Positions 867 through 997 of a stretch of 43,106 bases of DNA are shown one piece after another. The notes below the pieces were generated by a model. The model was not told the DNA's origin, did no database searches, and saw only the letters and a list, made by a program, of their open reading frames with translations. Within the stretch, counting starts at the first letter, position 1. Every line of letters starts with the position of its first letter. The position numbers were made by a program, and so were the translations under genes. Source of the DNA: Escherichia coli (GTDB lineage: Bacteria > Pseudomonadota > Gammaproteobacteria > Enterobacterales > Enterobacteriaceae); the NCBI RefSeq assembly GCF_003334255.1, contig NZ_QOWU01000049.1; one strand, 5' to 3'.

Positions 867-890
867 AAAAATTAATAATAATTGATATAA

Positions 891-908
891 CAATGATTCT
901 TATTATCA
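891..908. promoter_or_regulatory. Candidate Fur box in the ydiE/hemP promoter
   Basis: Sequence caatgattcttattatca (reverse complement TGATAATAAGAATCATTG) resembles the Fur consensus GATAATGATAATCATTATC; it lies 25-42 nt upstream of the ydiE start in an AT-rich stretch. Confidence 0.45.
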
Positions 909-970
909 ATATTATGGCTGACCAGAGCAAGCAGTAATTTGTTGAGAAGACAACAAGTTGCGCAGAAATG

Positions 971-991
971 CCCATTCCGTCAGGAATGGGC
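971..991 (-). terminator. Hairpin downstream of aroH (putative intrinsic terminator)
   Basis: Perfect inverted repeat gcccattcc-gtca-ggaatgggc immediately 3' of the aroH stop; on the minus strand it is followed by ATTTCTG. Confidence 0.5.
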
Positions 992-997
992 ACGCAT

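Follow-up and report, generated by a model that had tools for sequence, protein, structure and literature searches.

Positions 867-997 of the Escherichia coli DNA studied here (43,106 nt of contig NZ_QOWU01000049.1, assembly GCF_003334255.1; hereafter the window) correspond exactly to the 131-nt gap between the stop codon of aroH and the ATG of ydiE, the window being oriented in reverse of the MG1655 chromosome (Table 1). The gap is 100% identical to positions 1789482-1789612 of MG1655 NC_000913.3 and, therefore, published MG1655 data can be transferred to it base for base; a 401-nt stretch over the gap differs from MG1655 by 1 base, which lies outside the gap. Window positions equal 866 + (1789613 - position in NC_000913.3), and the old (version 2) MG1655 coordinates quoted below equal those of version 3 minus 1976 in this part of the chromosome. 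The gap is carried by 5423 of the 5426 complete E. coli genomes, the best match being at least 95% identical in 5,399 of these 5,423 and 90-95% identical in the other 24.

The product of ydiE had been described as hemP-like from its sequence, and the profile search bears this out: YdiE matches the Pfam hemP family PF10636 with E = 3.1e-15, its residues 27-63 covering model positions 1-37 of 37, i.e. the full length of the model. A protein with 100% identity to E. coli YdiE is also encoded on NZ_POTZ01001146.1, a 417-bp contig (coverage 0.8) labelled Streptomyces sp. NTH33, which is almost certainly an E. coli contamination of the Streptomyces assembly. On the other side of ydiE lies selO, as in MG1655. 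The two genes are convergent with 3 nt between their stop codons (669-677), which leaves no space for a terminator, so that each transcript must enter the other gene. As for the edge of the window, bases 1-76 have many matches per genome and an IS1-family annotation in the one listed match covering them, and homology to MG1655 selO starts at base 77, placing a junction at ~76/77; an IS1 element appears to interrupt selO in otherwise 99.9-100% K-12-identical sequence. The best 6 matches listed from the 5,426 complete E. coli genomes include none in which this IS1/selO junction is one contiguous match.

Conservation was assessed by searching a single genome of each species for the YdiE protein, which yielded 12 usable loci from four other Escherichia lineages, six Citrobacter and Salmonella enterica subsp. 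arizonae and diarizonae; together with the locus of the window these make up the 13 loci referred to throughout. In all 12 relatives aroH lies directly upstream of ydiE (1.5 kb either side were examined). The gap alignment of the 13 loci has a mean column identity of 61%, with strong divergence outside four conserved blocks: the arms of a hairpin, A.TTA..CTTG, the 20-nt TTGATAATAAnAATCATTGT and ATTnTTATTAA.

Table 1. Features in and around the aroH-ydiE gap (window coordinates).
Feature	Position	Strand	Description
selO (ydiU)	ends 671	plus	
ydiE	675..866	minus	ATG at 866; hemP family, 63 aa; Fur-repressed gene
Fur operator	864..913		Cluster of overlapping sites, classical 19-mer at 889-907; from PWM, consensus, shuffles and published data
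ydiE leader, remainder	867..893	minus	A/U-rich; whole leader 894-867, 28 nt
ydiE transcription start site (A)	894	minus	Kim et al. 2012, PMC3415461
ydiE putative -10 hexamer, GATAAT	902..907	minus	Invariant in 13 loci; within the Fur box; ends 7 nt upstream of the start
ydiE putative -35 hexamer, TTGCTC	925..930	minus	TTG invariant in 13 loci; 17 nt upstream of GATAAT
Second, weaker A/U-rich hairpin	936..959	minus	AACUUGUUG-ucuucu-CAACAAAUU; between the probable terminator hairpin and the -35 hexamer
Weak interrupted U tract	960..967	minus	Together with U968: UUUCUGCG; presumed place of aroH 3' ends
Stem-loop	968..993	minus	RNA G-UGCCCAUUCC-UGAC-GGAAUGGGCA-U; probable aroH terminator hairpin
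81-aa ORF	968..1213	plus	Antisense to the aroH 3' end; ATG formed by the hairpin base
aroH	998..2044	minus	Trp-sensitive DAHP synthase, 348 aa; stop 998-1000; from the ORF list; identical to MG1655 b1704

The stem-loop downstream of aroH

The original prediction described a perfect 9-bp-stem hairpin immediately beside a Fur box. The stem is indeed perfect, but it is longer than proposed, with arms at 969-978 and 983-992 forming 10 Watson-Crick pairs, to which a closing G.U pair is added, around a 4-nt loop; furthermore, ~55 nt separate it from the Fur box. Its free energy of ~ -17 to -20 kcal/mol corresponds to a z value of -4 to -5, a stability matched by 0 of 200 shuffles. Perfect hairpins whose stem measures at least 10 bp are few in the window, with only 4 distinct ones against 0.37 expected, and the one at 968-993 is the sole strong structure in the gap, where an Rfam scan of positions 600-1300 (E up to 1) gave no match to a known RNA family. 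In all 13 loci the hairpin starts 5 nt past the aroH stop codon on the sense strand, 95% of the stem cells in the alignment are paired, the arms are conserved while the loop varies, and the tail that follows is pyrimidine-rich, the orthologues having similar interrupted U/C tracts.

The published transcript levels reveal how sharply the RNA signal drops across this region. RNA-seq of the wild type gave ~276 for aroH vs ~11 for ydiE in MG1655 and ~203 vs 0 in W3110 (Gao et al. 2023, PMC10164565), i.e. an at least 20-fold fall within 131 nt, and, therefore, at least 96% of aroH transcription ends inside the gap. As had been predicted, the hairpin probably terminates aroH, a function for which its position, its orientation, its conservation and the RNA fall all speak, whereas the tail and the terminator scan speak against it. 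With 4 U in 8 nt, three of them adjoining the stem, the UUUCU-containing tail UUUCUGCG fails the 5-of-8 T criterion of the consensus terminator scan, which did not call the hairpin; a score of the d'Aubenton-Carafa type is marginally positive (+4.1). Thus, the hairpin plausibly serves to terminate aroH, probably independently of additional factors and in spite of its imperfect U tract. It shares with E. coli Rho-independent terminators the G+C-rich 10-bp stem and 4-nt loop after a stop codon, the following U residues, the large RNA drop and an orientation specific to the strand of the gene it would serve, and it differs from them in a U tract that is short and interrupted and that does not satisfy the standard consensus scan.

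The imperfect tail also leaves room for a different origin of the aroH 3' end, namely Rho action or exonuclease trimming, the hairpin then serving to protect the 3' end of the message or, as palindromic DNA, to bind a protein. The at least 20-fold fall in RNA would also fit rapid Rho-dependent termination or RNA processing. To the weakness of the U tract and the empty terminator scan it can be added that the stem is kept mainly as sequence, 7 of its 10 pairs being invariant and its covariation in the 13 loci not significant (112 of 500 shuffles reach the score), and that the supplements searched (Adams 2021, Dar and Sorek 2018, Choe 2022, TERMITe 2025 and SMRT-Cappable-seq 2018) list neither a mapped aroH 3' end nor a further ydiE start. 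Nonetheless, we consider this reading unlikely: the constant distance of 5 nt to the stop codon in 13 of 13 loci, with conserved arms, a variable loop and a pyrimidine/U-rich tail, the inner stem pair that passes from UA to UG to CG across loci, the fall of the signal within 131 nt, a short space for Rho loading, and, marginally, the score of +4.1 argue against it.

Near-invariant arms combined with drifting loop and flanks and a poor U tract mean that the hairpin could be something more than a passive terminator. It could represent a conserved protein- or RNA-recognition element at the 3' end of aroH, or else a conditional terminator setting the amount of tryptophan-regulated transcription that reaches the Fur-controlled ydiE promoter, both of which we regard as long shots.

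Two further observations concern structures in the window. The second hairpin of the gap (Table 1) was set aside, as it occurs in Escherichia alone and the region is unalignable in Citrobacter and Salmonella. Far from the gap, another of the 4 perfect hairpins counted above, at 32777-32805, has a 13-bp stem with A5 on one side and T5 on the other (AAAAATGGCGCACAATGTGCGCCATTTTT) and resembles a bidirectional terminator; it appears to be the lpp terminator.

The 81-aa ORF listed on the plus strand had been dismissed as spurious and blamed on the hairpin. It is indeed spurious: it runs antisense to aroH, and its ATG is poorly conserved, being present in only 6 of the 13 orthologous loci. The hairpin does account for its start codon, as proposed, but not for the frame staying open.

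Promoter and leader of ydiE

A transcription start site of ydiE has been mapped in MG1655 at old position 1787609, which is window position 894 and defines a 28-nt leader, with the sequence upstream of the start ending in ...GATAATAAGAATCA / ...TTGATAATAAGAATCA (Kim et al. 2012, PMC3415461, supplement). Since this mapped start is preceded by a conserved TTG and a conserved GATAAT at a conserved spacing, we infer that ydiE is transcribed from a sigma-70 promoter of the form TTGCTC-17-GATAAT, in which the 17-nt spacer has a constant length and a variable sequence in the 13 loci. TTGCTC agrees with TTGACA at 3 of 6 positions, and this weak -35 hexamer explains that the promoter was not called by a generic consensus scan. 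The same scan reported a promoter-like match on the plus strand at 887-915, which scored no better than shuffles and was discarded as an effect of AT-richness.

A different pair of hexamers, TTGATA-16-TATCAA (909-904 and 887-882), was predicted by Shimada et al. 2014, who observed in vitro binding of RNA polymerase holoenzyme to this spacer and also flagged H-NS there. Besides the support from holoenzyme binding, the -35 hexamer of this pair is closer to the consensus. However, the mapped start at 894 falls between TTGATA and TATCAA, and TATCAA is not conserved, being replaced by AACTGA in C. koseri and by GTTTGA in S. enterica arizonae and diarizonae, unlike the TTG-17 nt-GATAAT arrangement, which is kept in 13 of 13 loci. 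For these two reasons the alternative hexamers were rejected as the active ydiE promoter, a role that is decidedly improbable for them, in favour of TTGCTC-17-GATAAT.

The conserved block that contains the -35 TTG extends upstream as A.TTA (931-935), directly adjacent to the hexamer and likewise invariant in the 13 loci; it might be an UP-element-like contact or the site of another regulator. The sequence TAAGAATCATTGTTA resembles an RcsAB box and was set aside, its G being specific to Escherichia. Downstream of the start, the 28-nt leader (AUUGUUAUAUCAAUUAUUAUUAAUUUUU-AUG) is devoid of a Shine-Dalgarno sequence, a configuration that would allow an extra layer of translational control. In several relatives another in-frame ATG occurs three codons further downstream, and it is the sole one in S. 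enterica arizonae.

A Fur operator overlapping the ydiE promoter

The ydiE promoter region had been predicted to be extremely AT-rich and to contain a Fur-consensus-like element, and the analysis supports both statements. Stretch 867-915 has 89.8% A+T, compared with 50.4% over the whole window, and is the most AT-rich 49-mer of the window, its value being reached by 3 of the 43,058 49-nt segments, all of them overlapping the same stretch. The closest match to the Fur consensus GATAATGATAATCATTATC is GATAATAAGAATCATTGTT at 889-907 of the minus strand, with 15 of 19 positions (4 mismatches), and a second match of 14 of 19 (5 mismatches) is shifted by 6 bp, at 895-913 of the same strand. Only 4 places in 43 kb have 4 mismatches or fewer, one of them in the sufA promoter, and a search for the exact consensus with up to 3 mismatches misses the ydiE site and recovers sufA alone. 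For this reason, and because an AT-rich motif matches AT-rich DNA anyway, we built an independent position weight matrix (PWM) from 17 MG1655 sites with footprint, gel-shift or classical support, none of which lies inside the window (fepA-fes, fepD-entS, entC, fepB, fhuA, gpmA, ryhB, sodA, fecI, fhuF, cirA, exbB, yoeA, nohA, bfd, tonB and fur).

The matrix identified overlapping matches of 18.9 bits (892-910), 18.0 bits (886-904) and 10.4 bits (871-889) at ydiE, in addition to five weaker ones. The centres of the two best, 901 and 895, are separated by 6 bp, and other sites are centred at 898, 883 and 880; the two best rank second and fourth in the window, the first rank being held by sufA and the third by a site upstream of ydhY. 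When left out one at a time, the 17 training sites score between 4.2 and 27.8 bits, therefore the ydiE site falls among known Fur sites. When the 49-nt AT-rich stretch was shuffled 20,000 times with its dinucleotide content kept, P was 0.01 for the top score and 0.0003 for the second-best, and, therefore, the Fur element is real and base composition is insufficient to explain it. A PWM scan had been suggested as the check on the prediction, which this outcome upholds. Counted from the start site, the operator core runs from about -16 to +24, so that GATAAT and the published start lie inside Fur sites and the operator overlaps the core promoter, the usual layout for repression by promoter occlusion; weaker overlapping matches continue to the ATG.

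This element is also strongly conserved. The core TTGATAATAAnAATCATTGT is invariant but for one column in the 13 Escherichia, Citrobacter and Salmonella loci, while its flanks diverge, and the Fur site is the top PWM match in every one of these loci (~2.4-3.2 kb each), with 18.0-23.5 bits. The right half-site is AGAATCA in Escherichia (against ATTATCA), which is weaker than the ATAATCA of Citrobacter and Salmonella (23.5 bits).

Published work on the identical sequence had already established this operator. The information-theory scan of Chen et al. 2007 (PMC2189734) reported a ydiE cluster of 10 overlapping sites over 53 bp, with a best site of 20.1 bits at old position 1787602, 35 nt upstream of the ATG; this is window position 901 and coincides with the centre of our top PWM match. 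The 'experimental data' column of that study is blank for ydiE. Fur occupancy in vivo was shown by ChIP-exo, with a peak in MG1655 at old 1787605-1787617 (window 886-898) and one in W3110 at the same offset from the ydiE ATG, and ydiE is one of the 36 genes that make up the core Fur regulon across nine E. coli strains (Gao et al. 2023, PMC10164565). The same study showed derepression in fur mutants, the log2 change of ydiE being +2.2 to +8.1 in eight strains (+2.87 in MG1655 and +8.14 in W3110), whereas in BL21, the exception, ydiE went down (-1.1). In a Salmonella fur mutant ydiE is derepressed 7.4-fold, and its Fur site had been found earlier (PMC3212961). The cited Fur studies contain no DNase footprint or gel shift of the ydiE site, and Beauchene 2015 does not mention ydiE. 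The operator analysed here is thus the one known from E. coli K-12 (Chen et al. 2007; Gao et al. 2023), identical in sequence (100%) and in its centre at 901 and of similar strength, with 18.9 bits from our matrix and 20.1 bits as published, so that nothing sets the two apart. Regulation of ydiE by Fur, as originally proposed, is therefore backed by the PWM score, the conservation in 13 loci, the published ChIP-exo peak and the derepression in fur mutants, BL21 excepted.

The same strand, the distance of 131 nt and the gene order kept in 12 of 12 related loci would also suit an arrangement in which ydiE is expressed mainly as the downstream gene of an operon with aroH, Fur being a roadblock to transcription reading through from aroH instead of a promoter repressor. 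This is highly improbable given that ydiE has its own mapped start at 894, that aroH and ydiE RNA levels are uncoupled (276 vs 11 and 203 vs 0), that ydiE rises in the fur mutant without a parallel change of aroH and that a strong hairpin stands between the two genes. As for the notion that the Fur-like match is a by-product of an AT-rich, H-NS-bound spacer with no specific operator, for which a stretch of 90% A+T, the AT-richness of Fur motifs themselves and the H-NS flag at the spacer (Shimada et al. 2014) might plead, it is already effectively refuted by the shuffle P values given above, by a core with one variable position across three genera whose neighbouring AT-rich bases vary, and by ChIP-exo peaks in nine strains together with the derepression of ydiE in fur mutants.

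The other Fur-like sites of the window deserve a brief account. The strongest one, in the sufA promoter (20.3 bits at 26031-26049, region 26028-26052, 3 mismatches), maps to the sufA cluster of Chen et al. 2007 and Gao et al. 2023 and has weaker Fur-like neighbours at 25898-25916 and 25840-25858. The ydhY-fumD intergenic region carries a site of 18.6 bits at 35738-35756, 255 nt upstream of ydhY, which corresponds to the ydhY cluster of Chen et al. 2007 (old 1752756); the three top PWM places of the window (ydiE, sufA and upstream of ydhY) are exactly the clusters reported by these authors for this stretch of the genome. A match of 16.1 bits, TTTAAAAATGCTTATCGTT, lies inside the ydiP coding sequence (11670-11688), is absent from the published Fur site lists cited here and may be either a chance match or an intragenic Fur site. 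Inside ydhU, the near-perfect palindrome GATAATGGTCACCACTATC (40527-40545) has 4 mismatches to the Fur consensus on both strands but scores low in the PWM; another regulator may bind there.

Two signals in one spacer

Taken as a whole, we are highly confident in a model in which the gap holds two independent and conventional signals on the minus strand, a probable aroH terminator and a Fur-controlled ydiE promoter. The aroH mRNA would fold into a 10-bp G+C-rich stem-loop 5 nt after its stop codon, followed by UUUCU, which would act as a Rho-independent terminator, ending and stabilising the aroH mRNA and keeping tryptophan-controlled aroH transcription out of ydiE. A sigma-70 promoter ~40 nt downstream of the hairpin starts ydiE transcription at 894, and overlapping Fur sites 6 bp apart cover it from ~ -16 to +24. 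With ample iron, these sites would be occupied by Fe(II)-Fur dimers that keep RNA polymerase from the -10 hexamer and the start, an occlusion that we infer, and under iron scarcity Fur would leave and the small HemP-family protein YdiE would be made.

This architecture is a familiar one. Sites spaced by 6 bp are common to ydiE and the classical promoters with overlapping 7-1-7 (19-bp Fur box) sites, such as entC, fhuA, sodA and sufA, and so are an operator placed over the -10 hexamer and the start and a derepression in the fur mutant; ydiE differs from them in the weaker right half-site of Escherichia and in a product of 63 aa. The hemP gene of Yersinia enterocolitica likewise encodes a small PF10636 protein after a Fur-binding site (PMC3212961), there in the hemin-uptake locus hemPRSTUV, whereas ydiE stands alone between aroH and selO. 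The original prediction is therefore correct but ordinary, given that the Fur operator and Fur control of ydiE are already documented. To the known operator the present work adds a promoter assignment that builds on the published start, along with a phylogenetic footprint of 13 species, in all of which the -35 TTG, the spacing of 17 nt, GATAAT and the core of the Fur site are kept.

The importance of these results beyond annotation is small; a reader of the sequence alone had found a real Fur operator plus a likely terminator. They fix the anatomy of a small conserved regulatory region, with its probable terminator, its proposed -35 and -10 hexamers, and its start site, operator and leader. 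The biological question that reaches beyond these data is the role of a Fur-repressed HemP-family protein such as YdiE in bacteria without a hemin-uptake system, e.g. K-12.
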